Of a stretch of DNA of 64,000 bases, positions 9,118-53,301 are shown piece by piece. The first letter of the stretch is position 1; every line of letters starts with the position of its first letter. Position numbers and translations under genes: made by a program. Under the pieces are notes generated by a model. That model saw nothing but the letters and a program-made list of their open reading frames with translations. It was not told the DNA's origin and ran no database searches. This DNA comes from an uncultured archaeon (GTDB taxonomy: Archaea > Asgardarchaeota > Lokiarchaeia > Sigyniarchaeales > SOKP01), in contig CAYPFJ010000007.1 in the NCBI GenBank assembly GCA_964409945.1, forward strand, positions 18,635-82,634, read 5' to 3'.

Positions 9118-9249
9118 AGCTGTTTTATTTATCAAAACTCAAGAATAAATAAGATATTTTCAAAAAACAATGAATATTTTAGAAAATAAATTTTAATTAA
9201 TACCTATACCTTTAAAATTATAAATTGTTTCTTTTAAGGAAAAGTATTT

Positions 9250-11079
9250 ATGGATACTACAGAATTACCATCGATTGAAAGTGTTTCAGAGAATAAAACC
9301 ATTAAAGAAGAAATTAAAAATCAATATTTTTGGTATCTTTTTGTCCTTTTCACAATATTTTTGGCTTCATTAGTTATTCCCGCAATTGTGTTTCTAATGT
9401 ATGTATTTTTCTTTTTTTTACCTAATTTTTTAGATACTACTAGTTTTTTAGCCCTTTTTACAGAATTTAAACCTATGATAGCATTGATCTCTATGCCTTT
9501 AGTCCTCATTGGTTGTTATCTTATTCGACTATTCTTTATAGGTTTAATTACACGTGGTTTTTGGTATCTAACTGAAAAAAGATCCCCTAGTAAAGATGGT
9601 ATTATACCAAGAAATTTTCCTAGTAAAACATTAAATTATTATCAAATTAGAGGTTTCATGATTAAATATGGAAAGAATGCCTTTATGAAAGGTTCTTTTC
9701 CTTGGCTTAGCAACTGGTATTTTAATTTTATAGGCGCAAGCAAAATTGGAAAGGGTACTACCTTAGAGGAATCTGTCAGTAGTGACAAATTTATTGAAGT
9801 AGGGCGAAATTGTTATATAGGAGTTAACTCTGCGTTAGCTAGCCATGTTATTGAGGGAATTTTTGGAAATATCTCCTATTTTAAAGTAAAAACAGGAAAT
9901 AATTTTACCGCAGCAGCTAGTAATATTTTAGGACCCGGTTCTGAAGCGTATGATAATTCTTATTTACTTCCTTTAGCCTCAACTACCAAACATAGCGTAA
10001 TTAAAGGAAATAATTATTACTGGGGCATGCCATTAAGAAAAATTTTCAGAAAGAAGATTATGAAATTTTTAAGAATATCGCCAAAGGATTTAGAGAAAGG
10101 TGAAAATATTGGAGGTTATAAAGATAAGAAATTGTTTAAAAAATTGAGAGCTCAGAAACGTTCGAAGCAAACTGAAGCTGAACCCAAGATAGTATTAGAT
10201 AACGGAGACTTAAAGAAGGAAAATATTAATCTAAATGATATTGATAAAAAAGAATTAAGAATTGATTTTACCACTAGTAGTGCGATTTCAAGGATAAATA
10301 TAAAATTTTTAGTAGTTTATATCCCAATTTTTTGGTTGTCTGGCATGACAGATACCGTGATCTTTTACTCTTTCACTCATTACGTGCAAAATTGGGTATT
10401 AATGGCATTTTTTTTACCAGCAATATTAATTATTATGTGGTTTATATTTATTTTAGGATGTTTTTTCTTTAGCAAACTCTTCTTGATACTAATTAATTTA
10501 ATACATAAGCCAAAAGAAGGGATATTCAAAGCTGAAAAAGGAGATGCTGATTTTGAATTTTGGTGTTTACGAACTGAATTAAAAAAAGTAGCTTTTTGGT
10601 TTATTAGAAATTGGCCCCTTCCTTGGATGGATATTTTGGCTTTTAAATGGTTCGGCACCAAAATGAGTTTATCAAGCACGTTATGGGACTCATGGTGCGA
10701 TGGAGAATTTATTAAATTTGGACGTAGGGTAATAATAGGGCAAGGTGCTACTGTTATGTCCTCTATGGTCGTCGGAAAATATTTATTAATTAAAAAAGTC
10801 ATTCTAGATGATTATGTTGTTATTGGAGGTCAGAGCATTGTAGCTCCAGGAACGATCGTTGGTAAGGATTCAGTAGTCGGTGCTCTTAGTACAACTAACT
10901 ATGATCAGATCCTTGAGCCGGGATGGATTTATTTTGGAATTCCTGTCATTCAATTAAAGAAAAATAAATATTCCGAAGAACGTCGAGATATACTTATGAA
11001 ACGGGATGTTGATGAAGAAAAGAAGTATGAAATTAAACATGAAGTCAATATTGATGAAGATAAAAAAGAATTTGCATAA
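9250..11079 (+). CDS. Double-module membrane protein: two tandem (2 hydrophobic segments + LbH) units, types N+A; paralog of 11632..13512
   Basis: N unit: SPSKDGIIPRNFPSKTLNYYQIRGFMIKYGKN..WYFNFIGASKIGKGTTLEESV..IGVNSALASHVIEG. A unit: INLIHKPKEGIFKAE..FEFW..GQGATVMSSMVVG..VIGGQSIVAPGTIVGKDSVVGALS, with tail EVNIDEDKK. 609 aa. Confidence 0.6.
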   Translation: MDTTELPSIESVSENKTIKEEIKNQYFWYLFVLFTIFLASLVIPAIVFLMYVFFFFLPNFLDTTSFLALFTEFKPMIALISMPLVLIGCYLIRLFFIGLITRGFWYLTEKRSPSKDGIIPRNFPSKTLNYYQIRGFMIKYGKNAFMKGSFPWLSNWYFNFIGASKIGKGTTLEESVSSDKFIEVGRNCYIGVNSALASHVIEGIFGNISYFKVKTGNNFTAAASNILGPGSEAYDNSYLLPLASTTKHSVIKGNNYYWGMPLRKIFRKKIMKFLRISPKDLEKGENIGGYKDKKLFKKLRAQKRSKQTEAEPKIVLDNGDLKKENINLNDIDKKELRIDFTTSSAISRINIKFLVVYIPIFWLSGMTDTVIFYSFTHYVQNWVLMAFFLPAILIIMWFIFILGCFFFSKLFLILINLIHKPKEGIFKAEKGDADFEFWCLRTELKKVAFWFIRNWPLPWMDILAFKWFGTKMSLSSTLWDSWCDGEFIKFGRRVIIGQGATVMSSMVVGKYLLIKKVILDDYVVIGGQSIVAPGTIVGKDSVVGALSTTNYDQILEPGWIYFGIPVIQLKKNKYSEERRDILMKRDVDEEKKYEIKHEVNIDEDKKEFA

Positions 11080-11631: not shown

Positions 11632-13512
11632 ATGAGTGAAGAAGGAAAAGAATCTGAGCTTTCTGATTCCGATGATTCTAATAACAAAGTTATAAAAGAA
11701 GAAATCAGTCTTCAATTTCATTTATATATTATTATTTTTGCTATTATTTATTATATTTCATGGATTATACCGGGATTTGTATTTTGGTTATATTTTTTCT
11801 TCCCTTTTCGAATATTCTTTTTAGAAAATCTCGATTTTTTATCTCTTTTTACTAATTTAAGTTCTCTAATAACGTTGTTAATTATGCCTTTAGTTATTAT
11901 TGGCTGTTATTTAATCCATTTAATGCTGATTGGATTAACAACACGATTTATTTGGGGAATTACTGAAAAAATTTCACCATCAAAATCAGGTATCATTCCA
12001 AGAAATATTAGAAGTAGGGTAGCGAATTATTACCATATTAGAAGTTTTATGATAAAATACGGAAAAAATACATTTATAAAAGGTATGTTTCCATGGTTAT
12101 CTAATTGGTTTTTTAATTTTGTTGGGTCAAACAAAATTGGTAAAGGAACAACCTTGGAGGAGTCTGTAGGGAATGATAAATTTATTAACATCGGGGAGAA
12201 CTGTTATATTGGTGTTAATTCTACATTAGCGAGTCATCTAATTCAAGGAATCTTCGGAAATATCTCATATTTCGAAATTGTAGTTGGTAATAATGTAACC
12301 TCTTCTGCTTTTGGTAATATTGGTGCAGGAAGTGAAATTTATGAAGATGCATATCTATTACCTCTAGCATCTACACCAAAACATAGTATACTAAAAGGTA
12401 ATAACTCATATTATTTTGGAATTCCAATGAGGAAAATCTTTAGAAAGAAACTAATGAATTATCTAAATGTAACACCAAAAGATTTGGAGATGAATGAGAA
12501 TATTGAAGGGTACTCAGATAAAAAATTATTAAAAGAAATAAAAGAGAAGAAGAGTTATCATGAAAAAGATGATGAAAATATTGATAAAGAGCAGATTCTG
12601 GGTGATCTACAAGAAGTTAAAATAGCATTGGATAAATTAACCGCAGAAGATTTAGCGATTGATTTCACAACAAGCTCTGCAATAAGTAGGGTAAATGTAA
12701 AGTTTTTAATTGTATATATACCAATTTTTTGGCTTTCGGGCTTAATCGTAACTATAATTTGGTACTGGTATTCTAAATCTCAAGTTTCATCGAACTTCCA
12801 ATGGTCATTTTTCTTTTTCTTCCCAATTGTTTTGTTCGGATTATTATATATCTTTAATGCGGGATGTCTTCTTTTTAGTAAGCTGTTTTTAATTTTAATA
12901 AATTTAATTCATAAACCTAAAGAGGGCGTGTTTAAAGCAGAGATTGGAGATACTAATTACGAATTTTGGATGATGAGAACTGAACTAAAGAAAATTGCTT
13001 TATGGTTATTTCGAAATTCACCATTTCCGTGGACCGATGCTTTAGCTTTTAAACAGTTAGGGATTAATATGGATTTTTCAAGCCATTTAGCTGATACTTG
13101 GTGTGATTCTGAATTTATTAAATTTGGGCGTAAAGTATTGGTTGGTCAGGGAGCTACAATTATGTCCAGTATGGTAATAGGTAAATATTTACTAATTAAA
13201 AAAGTATTTTTTGATGACTATGTAATGGTTGGAGGTCATACGACGATTGCTCCGGGAACGATAATAGAGAAAGAATCGGTTATCGGTGCGATAAGTTCAA
13301 CAACCTATGATCAAGTTCTAAAACCTGGTTGGATTTATTTTGGGATACCTGCGAGGGAATTAAAAGAAAATAAATATGCTGAAGAGAGAACAGATATAAT
13401 AATTAAACGCCAAGTAGCTGAAGCCAAAAAATTTGAAACGACACTTGAAGTTAATATTGATGAAGATAAGAAAGAATTAATTAAAATAAAAAAAAAGAGG
13501 AAAGAAAAATGA
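11632..13512 (+). CDS. Double-module membrane protein (types N+A), paralog of 9250..11079
   Basis: 626 aa with the same block order as 9250..11079: GIIPRNIRSRVANYYHIRSFMIKYGKN..FNFVGSNKIGKGTTLEESVG; INLIHKPKEGVFKAE..YEFW..GQGATIMSSMVIG; EVNIDEDKK. ATGA overlap with the next gene. Confidence 0.6.
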   Translation: MSEEGKESELSDSDDSNNKVIKEEISLQFHLYIIIFAIIYYISWIIPGFVFWLYFFFPFRIFFLENLDFLSLFTNLSSLITLLIMPLVIIGCYLIHLMLIGLTTRFIWGITEKISPSKSGIIPRNIRSRVANYYHIRSFMIKYGKNTFIKGMFPWLSNWFFNFVGSNKIGKGTTLEESVGNDKFINIGENCYIGVNSTLASHLIQGIFGNISYFEIVVGNNVTSSAFGNIGAGSEIYEDAYLLPLASTPKHSILKGNNSYYFGIPMRKIFRKKLMNYLNVTPKDLEMNENIEGYSDKKLLKEIKEKKSYHEKDDENIDKEQILGDLQEVKIALDKLTAEDLAIDFTTSSAISRVNVKFLIVYIPIFWLSGLIVTIIWYWYSKSQVSSNFQWSFFFFFPIVLFGLLYIFNAGCLLFSKLFLILINLIHKPKEGVFKAEIGDTNYEFWMMRTELKKIALWLFRNSPFPWTDALAFKQLGINMDFSSHLADTWCDSEFIKFGRKVLVGQGATIMSSMVIGKYLLIKKVFFDDYVMVGGHTTIAPGTIIEKESVIGAISSTTYDQVLKPGWIYFGIPARELKENKYAEERTDIIIKRQVAEAKKFETTLEVNIDEDKKELIKIKKKRKEK

Positions 13513-14459
13513 GTGTACCAAATACAATGCGTGTTGGTCCTTTCACCTCAAATGTGCTCGTGCGGAAACGTTATTTATTTTTTTACATCTTGCTTATTTG
13601 GGCAAGTGTAATTCCAATCCTCTTAGAATTTTGGGTTTATTGGCGTTTTTTATGGCACCCGATAAGACCAGTTCATTTCTATACATTTCTTCCACTTTTA
13701 GCTTTCTTAATGTATATTACTTTAGTTTTTTCTTCAATACTTTTTGCTAAGATCTTATTAATTATAATTAATGCATTCCATAAGCCTCGAGAAGGTGTTT
13801 TCTTACGAATTCCCGCAGATCGAGATTATCGAAATTGGAGTCTTCGGAATACTATCAAAAGGTGGCCAACTTGGCTTGCCCACAGATTTCCTTTCCCTGG
13901 CTTTTTAGATAATGTATGTTTTAAAATGTTTGGAGTGAAAACCAAAATTTCGAATTCCTTATTTGAGGGTTGGGTGGATACTGAGTTCATCGATTTTGGT
14001 AGAGATGTAGTTATTGGACAAGGAGCAATTGTTCAATCTGCTGTAATTATAGGGAATCTCTTAATAATTAGGAAAACAATTATCGGAAATGATGTTAGAA
14101 TAGGTTCACATGCCATAATTATGCCAGGTACCCATATCGAACATAATTGTATTTTAGCTGCTAATTCTGTAACTACGGTAGGACAGGTTTTAGAAAGTGG
14201 ATACGTTTATGCTGGTATTCCTGCAAAAAAGTTTAAAAGGAACTATTTTTTTGAGGATGGGTTGGAGGATAAGATAGGTCATGTTGAGGATGTTGAGGCG
14301 TTAAGAGAAAAATATGAACAGATTTATACTAAAAGATATGATAAATTGAAACTTAAAGAGCGTCGTGAGTTAAAGAGAGAAAAGAAAGAAGAGGAAAAGA
14401 AGAGATTTGACTATGCGGCTGATGAATGGGAAGAATTTGACGATGGTTTCAATATTTAA
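13509..14459 (+). CDS. Single-module membrane LbH protein, type B (paralog of 943..1818), with highly charged C-terminal tail
   Basis: INAFHKPREGVFLRIPADRDYRNWSLRNTIKRWPTWL..FEGWVDTEFIDFGRDVVIGQGAIVQSAVIIGNLLIIRKTII. 4-nt overlap with the upstream gene. Confidence 0.6.
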   Translation: MSVPNTMRVGPFTSNVLVRKRYLFFYILLIWASVIPILLEFWVYWRFLWHPIRPVHFYTFLPLLAFLMYITLVFSSILFAKILLIIINAFHKPREGVFLRIPADRDYRNWSLRNTIKRWPTWLAHRFPFPGFLDNVCFKMFGVKTKISNSLFEGWVDTEFIDFGRDVVIGQGAIVQSAVIIGNLLIIRKTIIGNDVRIGSHAIIMPGTHIEHNCILAANSVTTVGQVLESGYVYAGIPAKKFKRNYFFEDGLEDKIGHVEDVEALREKYEQIYTKRYDKLKLKERRELKREKKEEEKKRFDYAADEWEEFDDGFNI

Positions 14460-48954: not shown

Positions 48955-49260
48955 ATGGAAGAAGTTCCAGAAGAGAAAAAAATTGTAAGAATTGATCAAG
49001 TATTTGTGGTCGGAGGAAGTTTTGATGAGCCTTCAGATTTTACAAACAAGGTTAATCGAAATCTTTTACTTTTACATGAAAGCAAAAAATACTATAAAAT
49101 TAAAGATATAAAGTTCAATATTTTTAATGACCAACGCTTTCCTCAATCAACTCCTATATACCTAGCCTTTATTGTTGCTGAAGTAGATGTAGATGTTACC
49201 CCAGAACCAGAAAAAAAAAGAAAGAAGAAAAAGAAGCAAAAGAAAAAGAAGAGAATCTGA
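48955..49260 (+). CDS. Hypothetical protein with poly-Lys C-terminal tail
   Basis: 101-aa ORF ending EPEKKRKKKKKQKKKKRI, encoded by a purine tract at 49206-49257. Confidence 0.3.
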   Translation: MEEVPEEKKIVRIDQVFVVGGSFDEPSDFTNKVNRNLLLLHESKKYYKIKDIKFNIFNDQRFPQSTPIYLAFIVAEVDVDVTPEPEKKRKKKKKQKKKKRI

Positions 49261-49460: not shown

Positions 49461-49988
49461 TTATCTGAATATTGTGTGATAAATTATTCTTTCTATTTTT
49501 CGCAAATGTTCATATAATGCACTCCGAGAAATTTTAAAATGAGTAGAGATTTTCTTTGAATTGATTCTACGAGGTATTTCAAAATATCCATGCTGAATAG
49601 CGTAATACACAATTTCTTTCTGACGGTCTGTTAATTTTAAAAAAAGATTTTCATAGTTAGGATGTATATGAGATATGCTTAGAATCTCCAATTCTCTATT
49701 ATAAAAGTAATTTAGGGAAGCAACAAATTCATCAATATTTTTACTTTCTGTTATAATACTTACTAAAAGACGATCTTGATCTAAAATAATAGGAGGATCG
49801 ATAATCAGATCTAGTTTATCGAGGAATTCTTTGGTTTCCTTAACCCAGTTATGCTTAGAAAAGAAAATAAATGATCTCTTGTTTTCAGCATTTCATGATC
49901 TTTCCCTTTTTTTTTCTTCTTGTGGACTAATAATTATCAATTTCCTCCAAAAAGTCGAATATAAAGGGTGGGTTATCGTTCCCTTCAT
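49461..49988 (-). pseudogene. Bat-type HTH_10 transcriptional regulator; reading frame open for 175 codons but interrupted by one in-frame TGA (49893..49895)
   Basis: The C-terminal LTDRQKEIVYYAIQHGYFEIPRRINSKKISTHFKISRSALYEHLRKIERII is an HTH_10 domain. The frame stays open 67 codons upstream of the track's TTG with no start codon. The only ATG (49986-88) lies beyond the TGA: MKGTITHPLYSTFWRKLIIISPQEEKKRERS[TGA]NAENKRSF... Confidence 0.45.
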
Positions 49989-50064: not shown

Positions 50065-51405
50065 ATGAAAAAAAAAGTTATTATCATTGGAGCATTAGGT
50101 TATGATTTTCACGTTTTTAACACAGTCTTTAGAGACAATGAAGAATATGAAGTTATAGCGTTTACTATTGCTGGAGAACAAAATGTAGGTACTACTGATG
50201 AGACTGAAAGGAAATTTCCTACCGCATTGGCGGGTAAATTATATCCTAATGGAATTCCGATGGTCTCAGAAGATTTACTTGAAGATTATATAAGAAAATA
50301 TGAAGTAGATGAAGTAGTATTTGCTTATTCGGATGTTTCTCATGAAGAAGTTATGCATAAAGCATCGAGAGCTCTTGCTGCAGGTGCTAATTACCGATTA
50401 ATTTCTGGAAGATTTACTCAACTTAAATCTAATAAACCCGTAGTTGCAATCTGTGCGGTAAGAACTGGATGTGGTAAAAGCCAAGTTTCTCGAGCTACAT
50501 ATCGATATTTACAGAGTAAGGGATATAAAGTTGTAGCAATTCGTGAACCAATGCCTTATGGCGATTTAGTCCAACAAAATGTTATGAGATTTGAGAAATA
50601 TGAAGATCTAGATACATACGATTGCACTATTGAAGAACGTGAAGAATATGAACCATATATTAGACAAGGATTAGTGATCTATTCTGGAGTCGATTACGAG
50701 AAGATAATTAGAGAAGCTGAGAAAGAAGCAGATGTAATTATTTTTGATGGGGGAAATAATGAGATTTCTTTCTATATTACTGATTTATTATTTGTCGTTG
50801 TAGATCCTTTAAGACCTGGACATGAGAATAAATACCATCCTGGAGAAGTGAATGCTAGGTATGCAGATGTTTTTGTAATAAATAAAATGGATAGTGCGAG
50901 ACCAGAAGATGTAAAGATCGTAGAAAAAAATCTGAATGAATTGAATTCAAACGCAATAAGAGTGTATACAAATTCAGTTGTCAAAGCAGAAGATCCTTTA
51001 AAATTAAAAGGAAAGAAAGTTGTAGTCGTAGAGGATGGACCAACATTAACTCATGGAGGTATGTCAATTGGTGCAGCATATGTTGCTGCTAAAAATGCAG
51101 AAGCAAAAATTGTAGACCCGAGAAAATATTTAGTAGGATCTATAAAAGAAATTTTCGAAGATTTCCCTCAAATTACCCAGATTGTTCCTGCTATGGGATA
51201 CACTGACCAACAAATAGATGATTTAGAAAAAACACTCAATAATGTGAAGGCGGACATTATTTTAAATGGAAGTCCTATTGATCTAACCAAATTAATTAAA
51301 GCTAATAAGCCAATTGTGAAAGTATCGTATGATATTGAGTCAATTGGAAGTCCTACGATTGAAGAAGTCCTTGATAATTTTATTAAAAAATTTTTAAAAA
51401 AATAG
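50065..51405 (+). CDS. COG2403-type P-loop protein (predicted GTPase / cyclic 2,3-diphosphoglycerate-synthetase-like family)
   Basis: KVIIIGALGYDFHVFNTVFRDNEEYEVIAFT.., VVFAYSDVSHEEVMH, Walker A-like AVRTGCGKSQV, IREPMPYGD. 446 aa. Family recalled from archaeal homologs. Confidence 0.55.
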   Translation: MKKKVIIIGALGYDFHVFNTVFRDNEEYEVIAFTIAGEQNVGTTDETERKFPTALAGKLYPNGIPMVSEDLLEDYIRKYEVDEVVFAYSDVSHEEVMHKASRALAAGANYRLISGRFTQLKSNKPVVAICAVRTGCGKSQVSRATYRYLQSKGYKVVAIREPMPYGDLVQQNVMRFEKYEDLDTYDCTIEEREEYEPYIRQGLVIYSGVDYEKIIREAEKEADVIIFDGGNNEISFYITDLLFVVVDPLRPGHENKYHPGEVNARYADVFVINKMDSARPEDVKIVEKNLNELNSNAIRVYTNSVVKAEDPLKLKGKKVVVVEDGPTLTHGGMSIGAAYVAAKNAEAKIVDPRKYLVGSIKEIFEDFPQITQIVPAMGYTDQQIDDLEKTLNNVKADIILNGSPIDLTKLIKANKPIVKVSYDIESIGSPTIEEVLDNFIKKFLKK

Positions 51406-51447
51406 TTTATTTTTTTAATTAAATTCTAAAATCTCATCCTCTAATTT

Positions 51448-51654
51448 TTACGTCTTAACCTTTTTCAAGTAATAAATGTAGATAATGAGCCCTACAGCGA
51501 ATACACCAATATCCATTAATAAAGCTCCAAACCAGGTACTATACACTCCAAGTCCTATATTTACAGTATCATCAAAGAGAAGTGGTACTCCAGTAGCGTT
51601 AGGGTCTATTACACTCATTGGCCATCCAATGAAGTCTAAAACCCAATGGCTAAA
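51448..51654 (-). pseudogene. 3' fragment (C-terminal ~68 aa) of a paralog of membrane protein 52792..53301
   Basis: Own translation: (FS)HWVLDFIGWPMSVIDPNATGVPLLFDDTVNIGLGVYSTWFGALLMDIGVFAVGLIIYIYYLKKVKT*, versus FSHWILDFIGWPISAINLNATGVPLLFDDAVNIGLGVYSTWFGALLMDIGVFVVGLGIYIHYAKNKKIK*. Confidence 0.65.
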
Positions 51655-51996
51655 AATAGTGGAGCTACTATCGTTGATCCTAAACCCTATTTATCAGGCA
51701 CAATCAAATCAGTATTTGAAGAATTTCCTCAGATTACTGAAATTGTTCCCGCAATGAGATATAATGACCAACAAATTAAGGATATGGAAGATACTCTAAA
51801 TAATGCTGAAGCTGAACTTATTATTGATGGAAGTCCAATAAATCTTGAAAAATTAATCAAGAGCAATAAACCAATTGTAAGAGTCAGCTACGATATCGAA
51901 GCTATAAAAAGTCCAACAATAGAAGAAGTGCTTGATATTTTTATTGAGAAAAATCTTTACATTTCTTTTTATCTTTTTAAATTTTCTATATTATAA
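51649..51996 (+). pseudogene. 3' fragment (C-terminal ~100 aa) of a paralog of COG2403-type gene 50065..51405
   Basis: AKNSGATIVDPKPYLSGTIKSVFEEFPQITEIVPAMRYNDQQIKDMEDTLNNAEAELIIDGSPINLEKLIKSNKPIVRVSYDIEAIKSPTIEEVLDIF, versus AKNAEAKIVDPRKYLVGSIKEIFEDFPQITQIVPAMGYTDQQIDDLEKTLNNVKADIILNGSPIDLTKLIKANKPIVKVSYDIESIGSPTIEEVLDNF. Confidence 0.7.
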
Positions 51997-52748
51997 TGGT
52001 TAAAAAAAGAAAAAAACAGGTAAAACGTGGTCATCCAATAGCAATTCTCATTGGTCTACATGATAATAATGCTGTATTTTGGAGAATATTTAGTGAGAAT
52101 ATTAGGCTACACTTTAGGATAAAACGTGGAAGGAAGAGAAGGAATCAAGATAAAAAACAATTGTATCATTTTCATGAGGAAATCATTAACATATTAAGAC
52201 CTATAGTTAAAGAAGGTATTAGAAGTGTAATACTGCTCTCCCCACCGAAAGAAGAATATTCTAATGAGTTTCTTAATCACGTTAATAAACATCATTCATG
52301 GCTATTAAAAAAAGGAGATAATCAAGTTGTTTTTTCTAAGATCATAGGTAATCAGGCAAAAACTCAAAAAGATGTATATTACCTAAAAACTCAAAATTAT
52401 TTTAAAGATATCGTTGATAAAACTTCAAATCAAGAGGGGTTGCTGATATTAGAAGAACTGACAGAAATAATTAACAAAAATGAGAAATTCTCAAAAATTC
52501 TTTATACTTGGAGAGAAATCGATACTGAACTAAGACTAATTAAACAAAATCCTAATCTTCCTAAGCCAAATTATATTATCTTAACTGAAGAATATCTAAA
52601 AAATCCAAAAAATAGAAATAAAACACATCGAATTTTACAGATCGCAAAAAATCTTGAAATTAAAACTAAAATTGTCAAGCTAGAATCCAAGGCGGGTGCT
52701 ATCGTAGAACAATTTGGAGGATTAATTTGTTATTTTAGAAAAAATTGA
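51996..52748 (+). CDS. eRF1/Pelota-like protein comprising only the central and C-terminal domains; no GGQ motif
   Basis: HPIAILIGLHDNNAVFWRIF.. (compare YGIVAMDEDEAQIFLI in Pelota), IRSVILLSPPKEEYSNEF (compare IIILGPGFARDRF), C-terminal KAGAIVEQFGGLICYFRK (compare GQIVKKFGGFAGILRYR). The start overlaps the stop of the upstream fragment (TAATG, 51994-51998). Confidence 0.5.
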   Translation: MVKKRKKQVKRGHPIAILIGLHDNNAVFWRIFSENIRLHFRIKRGRKRRNQDKKQLYHFHEEIINILRPIVKEGIRSVILLSPPKEEYSNEFLNHVNKHHSWLLKKGDNQVVFSKIIGNQAKTQKDVYYLKTQNYFKDIVDKTSNQEGLLILEELTEIINKNEKFSKILYTWREIDTELRLIKQNPNLPKPNYIILTEEYLKNPKNRNKTHRILQIAKNLEIKTKIVKLESKAGAIVEQFGGLICYFRKN

Positions 52749-52791: not shown

Positions 52792-53301
52792 TTATTTTAT
52801 CTTCTTATTTTTTGCGTAATGAATGTAAATCCCGAGTCCTACGACAAACACACCGATATCCATTAATAACGCTCCAAACCAGGTACTGTATACTCCGAGT
52901 CCTATGTTTACGGCGTCATCAAAGAGAAGTGGTACTCCTGTAGCATTCAGGTTTATGGCACTTATTGGCCAACCAATGAAGTCTAAAATCCAGTGGCTAA
53001 AAACAAGAAGTCCTATAATCAAGGTAGCATTTAAGTTTACGAGACTACAGCTTATTGATTTGGTTATTTTATCTTGCTCATTCTTTGAGTTTAGACGCAT
53101 TGTAATGAATGCTGTTATTAACATAGCAATAACTGTCCAAATAACTGACATAAAAAGCCCATGCGAAATCCAAATTGCAAATAAAAACATAAAAGACAAG
53201 ATATCGATAAACATGGCTGCTATTAATAATGCCCAAAGGGGTATTTGAGGAGCAAATCGCTTAGTCGCTAAACCAATTCCAATATGAGCAAATGCAGGCA
53301 T
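52792..53301 (-). CDS. Multi-pass membrane protein (DUF457/YdjM-like membrane-bound hydrolase family, tentative)
   Basis: MPAFAHIGIGLA.. start and 4-5 hydrophobic helices. 169 aa. Confidence 0.45.
   Translation of the reverse strand: MPAFAHIGIGLATKRFAPQIPLWALLIAAMFIDILSFMFLFAIWISHGLFMSVIWTVIAMLITAFITMRLNSKNEQDKITKSISCSLVNLNATLIIGLLVFSHWILDFIGWPISAINLNATGVPLLFDDAVNIGLGVYSTWFGALLMDIGVFVVGLGIYIHYAKNKKIK

Follow-up and report, generated by a model that had tools for sequence, protein, structure and literature searches.

The window, as the whole analyzed stretch is called here, comprises 64,000 nucleotides of contig CAYPFJ010000007.1 from an uncultured archaeon of the Lokiarchaeia, with a G+C content of 30.7%. 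Close relatives of the proteins encoded in the window are found in metagenome-assembled Lokiarchaeia/Promethearchaeota genomes. The subject of this work is a forward-strand gene at positions 51996 to 52748, whose product is made up of two domains of the Pelota/eRF1 fold, the central one and the C-terminal one. The protein belongs to a conserved family, and its architecture represents a new variant within a superfamily that is already known. Directly upstream lies a fragment of a COG2403-type predicted GTPase gene, and an intact gene of the same type is found farther upstream. A preliminary description of the locus, made from the sequence, had proposed that the Pelota-like gene and a COG2403 gene could form a translationally coupled pair belonging to a novel ribosome-associated or conflict system. 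Here, we describe the gene and its family, the rearranged DNA around it, and the role on the ribosome that the protein may have.

Gene and Domain Organization

The Pelota-like gene and the parts of its product are located as follows.

51996 to 52748, forward strand: two-domain Pelota-like gene, an open reading frame (ORF) of 250 residues with the stop codon TGA at 52746 to 52748

51996 to 52031, forward strand: N-terminal Lys/Arg-rich tail, residues 1 to 12, MVKKRKKQVKRG, unstructured in the AlphaFold2 (AF2) model

52032 to 52391, forward strand: central (M) domain, residues 13 to 132, from the AF2 secondary structure and alignment to the Pelota/Dom34 central domain

52125 to 52157, forward strand: basic loop at the GGQ position, residues 44 to 54, RGRKRRNQDKK, from profile alignment to Pelota/Dom34

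52395 to 52745, forward strand: C-terminal domain (eRF1_3 or Pelota domain), residues 134 to 250, with the motif FGGLICY at its end

The tail occupies the junction at which the N domain of Pelota would attach. The M domain in the AF2 model contains strands at residues 14–21, 25–32, 36–43, 77–82, and 112–117 and helices at residues 53–72, 88–99, and 124–132. The peptides that the preliminary description had quoted are located at residues 15–29 (IAILIGLHDNNAVFW), 44–54 (RGRKRRNQDKK), 77–88 (SVILLSPPKEEY), and 233–249 (AGAIVEQFGGLICYFRK).

Relationship to Pelota and eRF1

Taken alone, the window protein gives a marginal signal, as it matches Pfam eRF1_3 with E = 9e-4 and 20.2 bits, under the 25.8-bit cutoff, matches no NCBIfam model, and returns noise only in a phmmer search of the PDB. 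A weak Pox_E2-like Pfam match was set aside as compositional noise, being shown by only 3 of 51 family members. A profile built from 51 diverse members of the family recovers human Pelota with E = 3.3e-9 (profile positions 35–242 to Pelota residues 162–366), yeast Dom34 with E = 2e-7, and five archaeal Pelotas with E-values of 3e-7 to 1e-5, and it reaches aRF1 at 7.6e-4 only. These alignments to Pelota/Dom34 start at residues ~132–162, so the central domain is covered. Pfam eRF1_3 was detected in 34 of the 51 members (best E = 6.9e-8), and the Pfam eRF1_2 model itself in one. In the profile alignment, the RGRKRRNQDKK loop is matched with PRKRKGNCSQHDR (PRKRKG...) of Pelota and with PKKKRTTD of Dom34.

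Structure prediction with the family alignment as input gave a model of the window protein with a predicted local distance difference test (pLDDT) score of 95.2 and a predicted template modeling (pTM) score of 0.90; a Bathyarchaeia-type member with 37% identity was modeled with a pLDDT of 93.1 and a pTM of 0.87. When the window model was searched against the PDB with Foldseek, the top 14 matches were all Dom34/Pelota (best E = 3.5e-12), followed by aRF1/eRF1 at ~1e-8 and weaker and then by Balon at 1e-6. The ranking for the Bathyarchaeia-type model was identical, and Dom34/Pelota made up the top 12–14 matches across both models. Full-length alignments cover 237–256 columns at 12–20% identity to Pelota structures, and the C domain superimposes on the human Pelota C domain (5eo3) with a TMt of 0.81 and a root-mean-square deviation (rmsd) of 2.0. 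Lower down in the Foldseek lists, there are weak structural echoes of RNase-H-fold proteins of the RuvC/YqgF type.

The window protein thus has two domains, central and C-terminal, of the Pelota/eRF1 fold, with a homology well beyond chance, and is closer to Pelota than to eRF1; the family profile, Pfam eRF1_3, and the AF2/Foldseek comparison agree on the alignment that had first been made by eye. The defining features of the aeRF1 superfamily, an eRF1_2-type central domain and a C-terminal eRF1_3 domain, are both present. As for Pelota/Dom34 proper, the basic non-GGQ loop is present and the N-terminal domain, which in Pelota enters the decoding centre and the mRNA channel, is absent. The observation that RGRKRRNQDKK stands in place of GGQ was correct, and the loop is a Pelota-like feature rather than something new.

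Distribution and Conservation of the Family

A word-indexed search returned 160 homologs, all about 250 residues long and from Lokiarchaeia, with identities of 65–100%, many of which had been automatically named "stalled ribosome rescue protein Dom34" by JGI. Database pipelines label the family "Dom34" or "eRF1 domain-containing". When 1.8 billion representatives were scanned exhaustively with HMMER, about 135 clusters at 50% identity were obtained, in which full-length members measure ~215–270 residues and are never as long as Pelota or aRF1. The N domain, which had been reported as missing from the window protein, is absent from every member of the family, the proteins entering the profile at position 2–4. 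Longer ORFs that might have been N-terminal fusions (L073, L074, P0271, and P0083) were rejected as upstream read-through or miscalled starts. In the members examined, the N domain is replaced by a basic tail of 5–23 residues with a net charge of +2 to +10, and the family proteins are basic overall, with a median isoelectric point of 9.5; together with the basic loop shared with Pelota, this suggests that they bind nucleic acid.

A species scan, in which one genome per GTDB species was searched with an 11-sequence alignment as the query, gave a total of 80 loci. Thirty-two of these belong to Promethearchaeota/Lokiarchaeia, 31 with identities of 61–90% and one with 49%. The other 48 have identities of 34–42%, and 47 of them are labeled Bathyarchaeia or Bathyarchaeota. 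The 48th (L084; DATHCJ010000046.1, 4.6 kb) carries the label "Candidatus Limnocylindrales bacterium"; its neighbors (TFS, thioredoxin, His_biosynth-like, and MfnB genes) are typically Bathyarchaeial, and it is probably a mis-binned archaeal contig. More distant members of the family bear Thorarchaeota and Promethearchaeota labels. Four sequences 79–82% identical to the window protein (P0067, P0091, P0105, and P0109) are labeled Heimdallarchaeota, Thorarchaeota, or Hermodarchaeota, which at such identity likely reflects inconsistent taxonomy of metagenome-assembled genomes and not a true spread. Two further sequences of 269–272 residues, P0140 (labeled Lokiarchaeota) and P0189, constitute a divergent subfamily with 24–34% identity, distinguished by an insert rich in Lys and by an extension at the C terminus (..SDYEKKLGDQILQ..), and may represent a second paralogue or subfamily within Lokiarchaeia. 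One Bathyarchaeial genome (L069) contains a second, partial family copy of 141 residues at 9205–9630 of its locus, 2.5 kb downstream of the full copy.

With its N domain lost and its position in a visibly rearranged stretch, the gene might be taken for a pseudogene of a truncated Pelota, or for one part of a split Pelota, the C-terminal half, with the N domain coming from a gene at another site. Yet its architecture and its start are those of about 135 clusters, and 80 species loci have them too, with 61–90% identity in most Lokiarchaeia; no ORF encoding an N domain is adjacent in any context, and the rearrangement ends before a conserved block upstream of the gene. A decayed or split Pelota is therefore an explanation to which we give almost no credence. 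Identity within the family follows taxonomy, being high in Lokiarchaeia and 34–42% in Bathyarchaeia, and the broad conservation, the variable neighbors, and the gene's own conserved upstream block suggest that it behaves like a housekeeping gene.

Residues that are near-invariant across the family are G12, W29, S33, Y57, E61, G74, H95, W102, Q215, N219, G241, and G242. The loop at the GGQ position is variable in length, and its Gln is not conserved across the family, which excludes peptidyl-tRNA hydrolysis of the eRF1 type. In many non-Lokiarchaeal (Bathyarchaeia-type) members, the loop is short and less basic.

Six of the near-invariant residues, W29, S33, Y57, E61, H95, and W102, fall within the central domain, and they invite an explanation that does not involve the ribosome at all. 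The protein could be an RNA-binding or RNA-processing protein in which an RNase-H-like central domain and an L7Ae-like "Pelota" C domain are combined and the W/S/Y/E/H residues form a new site. Its basic character and the weak RuvC/YqgF-type echoes would be consistent with such an activity. All confident neighbors in sequence and structure are, however, A-site translation factors, E61 is common to Pelota, and no RNA-processing genes recur in the neighborhood of the family gene, so that we regard a ribosome-independent RNA protein as unlikely.

The Start–Stop Overlap and the Upstream Rearrangement

The DNA upstream of the Pelota-like gene contains the following features.

50065 to 51405, forward strand: intact COG2403-type predicted GTPase gene, an ORF of 446 residues ending 591 bp upstream of the Pelota-like gene

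51088 to 51096 (left) and 51649 to 51657 (right), forward strand: 9-nt direct repeat GCTAAAAAT bracketing the rearranged segment

51448 to 51657, reverse strand: C-terminal remnant of a membrane-protein gene, a 56-residue ORF that by alignment copies the 3' part of the gene at 52792 to 53301

51646 to 51996, forward strand: remnant of a COG2403-type gene, its last ~104 codons without the P-loop, with 70% amino acid identity to the intact copy

51955 to 51995, forward strand: conserved A/T-rich upstream block, from an upstream alignment of the 32 Lokiarchaeal loci

The ATG of the Pelota-like gene (51996–51998) shares its A with the TAA (51994–51996) of the upstream ORF at 51646–51996. This TAATG overlap, which the preliminary description had pointed out, is present in the sequence, though secondary. 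The remnant has lost its native stop, TAC being found at 51958–51960 (codon 105), and its frame continues for 14 codons to the TAA. In relatives with an intact abutting COG2403 gene, that gene ends in ...AAAAATCTC-TAA 35 nt before the ATG, and this TAA aligns with the TAC of the window. The overlap is a by-product of decay, the displaced remnant having TAC in place of its native stop TAA, and start–stop coupling in the proposed sense is not borne out.

The ~45 nt before the ATG are kept in most Lokiarchaeal contexts whatever the upstream gene, in the form ..TTTAAATTTC.TTTTATCTTTTTAAATTTTCTATTTTATC-ATG or ..AATTTAAAAAAATTAGGAAACATTAAATTTACTATTTTATC-ATG. In the window, the block consists of a TATA-like element centered ~36 nt before the ATG, followed by ..TTAAATTTNCTATTTTATC-ATG, and we infer from this alignment that it constitutes the gene's own promoter with a short leader. 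The last ~20 nt before the ATG (TTAAATTT[A/T]CTATTTTATC) were compared among L015–L040 and are more conserved than a plain promoter requires; no Shine–Dalgarno-like motif is found in them, either in the window or in L015–L040, and they could represent a short leader or a regulatory site.

The segment between the repeats (51088–51657) holds an alternative COG2403 3' end along with a duplicate of the membrane-protein gene's 3' end, and the repeat junction carries microhomology between these two genes. Judged from the sequence, the segment looks like a microhomology-mediated insertion or duplication. The same layout is found in independent metagenome contigs (L010, L012, and partly L013), so it is not an assembly artifact.

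The last ~105 residues of Lokiarchaeal COG2403 proteins fall into two allele classes that are ~70% identical, both of which are represented in the window (51085–51402 versus 51646–51951). The allele of the intact window gene is 87–93% identical to those of L019, L025, L036, and L039, and the remnant allele is 86–89% identical to those of L015, L016, L021, and L028. The N-terminal 340 residues are 81–95% identical across the same genomes (L015–L039). By its alleles, the COG2403 gene is a recombination mosaic. The remnant is most simply read as the original 3' end, since displaced, of a COG2403 gene formerly located directly upstream of the Pelota-like gene, as is the case in L019. The rearrangement stops upstream of the conserved block of the Pelota-like gene.

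Gene Neighborhood and the COG2403 Linkage

ORFs were called and clustered in 94 loci, which were then searched with the window COG2403 protein. JGI calls this protein "predicted GTPase" and NCBI calls it "GTPase", and its translation contains the motifs GCGKS, DGGN, and NKMD (P-loop/NKxD). Its Pfam matches are limited to sub-threshold cobW/P-loop models, with no match to GTP_EFTU or GTP_EFTU_D2, and it has neither an NCBIfam match nor a relative in the PDB; the COG2403 protein is not analogous to Hbs1, eRF3, or aEF1α. The PDB search lent no support to the idea that COG2403 might include cyclic-2,3-diphosphoglycerate synthetase.

An ortholog of the COG2403 gene lies within 6 kb of the family gene in 10 of the 32 Lokiarchaeal loci. 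In four of these (L019, L025, L036, and L039), it immediately precedes the family gene on the same strand, 35 nt away; in L015 and L021, one gene or about 1 kb intervenes, and in L016, L020, and L028, it is inverted. It is not nearby in the remaining 22, many of which encode proteins 83–88% identical to that of the window, and it is missing beside the family gene in divergent Lokiarchaeia (L041–L046) and in all 48 Bathyarchaeial loci. Linkage to COG2403 is therefore restricted to one shallow Lokiarchaeal subclade.

These observations bear on the proposal that the two-domain protein and the COG2403 predicted GTPase form a functional, translationally coupled pair in a new ribosome-associated or conflict system. 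The intact COG2403-type paralog that had been noted ~600 bp upstream does exist, the four abutting arrangements and the ten loci with linkage within 6 kb fit such a pair, and the GTPase-type motifs and the name of the protein are as described. Against it stand the 22 Lokiarchaeal and 48 Bathyarchaeial loci without a nearby COG2403 gene, the inverted orientation in three genomes and the separation in two, and the upstream block that the family gene carries for itself. Moreover, the partner in the TAATG overlap is a stop-less remnant without the P-loop part, and Pfam does not identify COG2403 as a translational GTPase. The neighborhood survey, in which the linkage suggested as a check proved not to be conserved in Lokiarchaeial and Bathyarchaeial loci, largely refutes the pairing, which we consider highly improbable. 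A conflict system fares no better, as PADLOC gave no match for the Pelota-like protein and sub-threshold noise only for COG2403, no operon partner recurs, and identity tracks taxonomy. Neither the COG2403 remnant nor the TAATG overlap is part of the mechanism; both came about as side effects of a local rearrangement.

At other Lokiarchaeal loci, the neighbors are, among others, an aIF5B gene (divergent) together with a UvrA gene (convergent), a member of the nitroreductase family, and a histidine kinase. In Bathyarchaeia, the family gene stands alone; a thioredoxin gene diverges from it, and a gene of the His_biosynth family converges on it. No co-directional neighbor recurs in Bathyarchaeia, and no gene cluster recurs across lineages; the family has no conserved partner gene. 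The recurrent neighbors among those annotated in Bathyarchaeia (not every neighbor is annotated) are metabolic, TFS, and thioredoxin genes. In about 20 species (L047–L094), a methanofuran-type gene block lies ~0.1–6 kb downstream, beside the His_biosynth-family gene, and comprises genes for 4-HFC-P synthase/MfnB, a PLP decarboxylase, an ATP-grasp protein, a Hydantoinase_A-like protein, and an amino-acid kinase. The methanofuran-type, thioredoxin, and TFS genes were considered as a functional clue and rejected as plain synteny because the flanking genes are divergent or convergent and have no link to translation.

Downstream of the Pelota-like gene lies the intact counterpart of the membrane-protein remnant.

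52792 to 53301, reverse strand: intact membrane-protein gene of 169 residues, convergent with the Pelota-like gene, from the ORF and a Pfam scan

Orthologs of this gene (cluster c18) adjoin the family gene in L019, L021, and L039. Upstream of the intact COG2403 gene and divergent from it, a 76-residue ORF at 49461–49691 (reverse strand) consists nearly entirely of an HTH_10 domain (E = 2.5e-17). A 101-residue ORF at 48955–49260 (forward strand), called as a gene in contig L010 too, ends in a run of Lys (EKKRKKKKKQKKKKRI). Elsewhere in the window, two paralogous gene pairs are found at 29–1818 and 11632–14459, the second gene of each beginning M(N)MSVP..(K/R)VGP..(K)KRYL.FYI. An Rfam scan of the whole window gave no matches.

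Comparison with Known Systems

The family shares with Pelota/Dom34 the central and C domains and the basic loop without GGQ, and also an SP-x motif that follows strand 4 and a GG motif that precedes the last strand. It differs in that the N-terminal sensor domain is replaced by the basic tail and in its family-specific invariant residues. The M and C domains have the same superfamily fold as those of aRF1/eRF1, but the GGQ motif and the N domain with NIKS are absent, and the similarity is weaker than to Pelota.

In the survey of Burroughs and Aravind (2019, PMC6514570), the Dom34-like clade comprises only Dom34 proper, and the domain-reduced forms, namely acVLRF-1 and some baeRF-1 families, sit on the aeRF-1 side and are mostly bacterial. 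The present family resembles these reduced forms as aeRF1-superfamily proteins without the codon-recognition domain, and acVLRF-1 has in its place a short N-terminal extension (PMC6514570). Many baeRF-1 families likewise lack the catalytic Gln and have been proposed to be non-catalytic ribosome binders (PMC6514570). These clades, some members of which are linked to HPF genes, nevertheless differ from the family in being kin to classical aeRF-1 rather than to Dom34, bacterial, and laterally spread, and acVLRF-1 retains a GGxSQ motif (PMC6514570) where the family has no conserved Gln. Of the fold matches that the preliminary description had suggested looking for, Pelota and then eRF1 were obtained, while a Pfam hmmscan of the 51 members gave no VLRF1/acVLRF1 match and a single weak one to baeRF_family10 (E = 0.009).

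A further point of comparison is Balon, a non-catalytic member of the aeRF1 family that binds the A site independently of mRNA (PMC10901736); for the present family, A-site binding is a prediction. In both Foldseek searches, Balon is a structural match (E-values between about 1e-6 and 4e-7) placed behind Pelota and aRF1. Unlike the family, Balon retains all three domains, including an N domain that bears an HP motif; its C domain contains a beta-hairpin insert. Archaeal Balon-like proteins have been reported only in Halobacteriota and Thermoplasmatota (2026 survey, PMC13324472). Literature searches found no paper describing the Pelota-like family or COG2403.

A Proposed Role on the Ribosome

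The explanation that we favor is that the protein, a paralogue of Pelota (the ribosome-rescue factor of archaea), stands alone, is non-catalytic, and has kept the M and C domains only. It would bind the ribosomal factor-binding site and the A site through these domains, on the large-subunit side, and its binding would ignore the content of the decoding site and the mRNA because the sensor domain is lacking. Its likely role would be an accessory one on vacant or idle ribosomes or on free large subunits, which it would, with ABCE1 and/or aEF1α, split, or else park and protect as Balon does in bacteria. The basic tail would contribute contacts to rRNA, and peptidyl-tRNA would not be hydrolyzed.

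The structural basis for this proposal comes from the eRF1–ABCE1 ribosome complex, in which the C-terminal domain of eRF1 touches ABCE1's FeS domain and the base of the stalk as well as the sarcin–ricin loop (SRL), the central domain touches H71 and H89–H93, and the N-terminal domain is delocalized (PMC6813808). Pelota behaves likewise, and when the GTPase is bound, it is the C and central domains that lie packed against it (PMC6813808). Since it is the M and C domains that make the contacts with the large subunit, ABCE1, and the GTPase in the superfamily, the domains kept here may by analogy suffice for them. The M–C orientation in both AF2 models is nearer to free Dom34 and ABCE1-bound Pelota (3j15_A, TMq 0.51–0.52), with a poorer fit to the GTPase-bound structures 3wxm, 5lzw, 3izq, and 5m1j (0.35–0.40).

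The same domain content would also suit a regulator or decoy that acts off the ribosome, titrating aEF1α or ABCE1 or competing with Pelota/aRF1 and thereby tuning rescue, termination, or recycling. What is retained equals the binding module of Pelota, and no catalytic loop is present. On the other hand, the protein is strongly positive in charge and its basic tail is conserved, which favors contact with RNA or the ribosome over protein–protein binding alone, and binding to either partner, aEF1α or ABCE1, is hypothetical. We judge an off-ribosome decoy to be improbable.

Several points weigh against the ribosome-bound accessory factor. Binding to the ribosome, to ABCE1, and to aEF1α is predicted by analogy with the superfamily, and the gene context gives no indication of it. 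W29, H95, W102, Q215, and N219 differ from Pelota at aligned positions and are thus family-specific, and such invariant residues could signal a different partner or activity. The short and less basic loop of many Bathyarchaeia-type members makes it doubtful that the peptidyl-transferase centre is reached. The argument from domain orientation is weak, as it is drawn from AF2 models and modest TM differences, and the presence of canonical Dom34/Pelota and aRF1 in Asgard and other archaea, alongside which a paralogue would act, is taken from the literature only (PMC6514570). With these points taken into account, a non-catalytic accessory factor at the factor/A site, acting with ABCE1 and/or aEF1α to split or park ribosomes, appears to us somewhat probable. 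We offer more tentatively, as possible but rather doubtful, the proposal in its full form, that Lokiarchaeia, Thorarchaeota, and Bathyarchaeia possess an undescribed family of N-domain-less Pelota paralogues that dock in a pre-extended state on the large-subunit factor site and split or park ribosomes with ABCE1 and/or aEF1α.

Implications

The aeRF1/Pelota superfamily is among the best-surveyed parts of translation, yet a conserved two-domain derivative of Pelota has been overlooked. It went unnoticed because the main survey lists only canonical Dom34 and the Balon survey dropped sequences of <300 residues (PMC10901736). The apparent coupling to a GTPase is the scar of a rearrangement and should not be propagated as a "system". 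The hosts of the family are slow-growing sediment archaea, including Asgard relatives of eukaryotes. Should the protein bind ribosomes with no inspection of the A site, it would represent a novel kind of recycling or hibernation factor in archaea, a Pelota-derived counterpart of bacterial Balon and of yeast Dom34–Hbs1 on inactive 80S ribosomes, and the family would amount to a natural experiment on the need for the N domain of Pelota.

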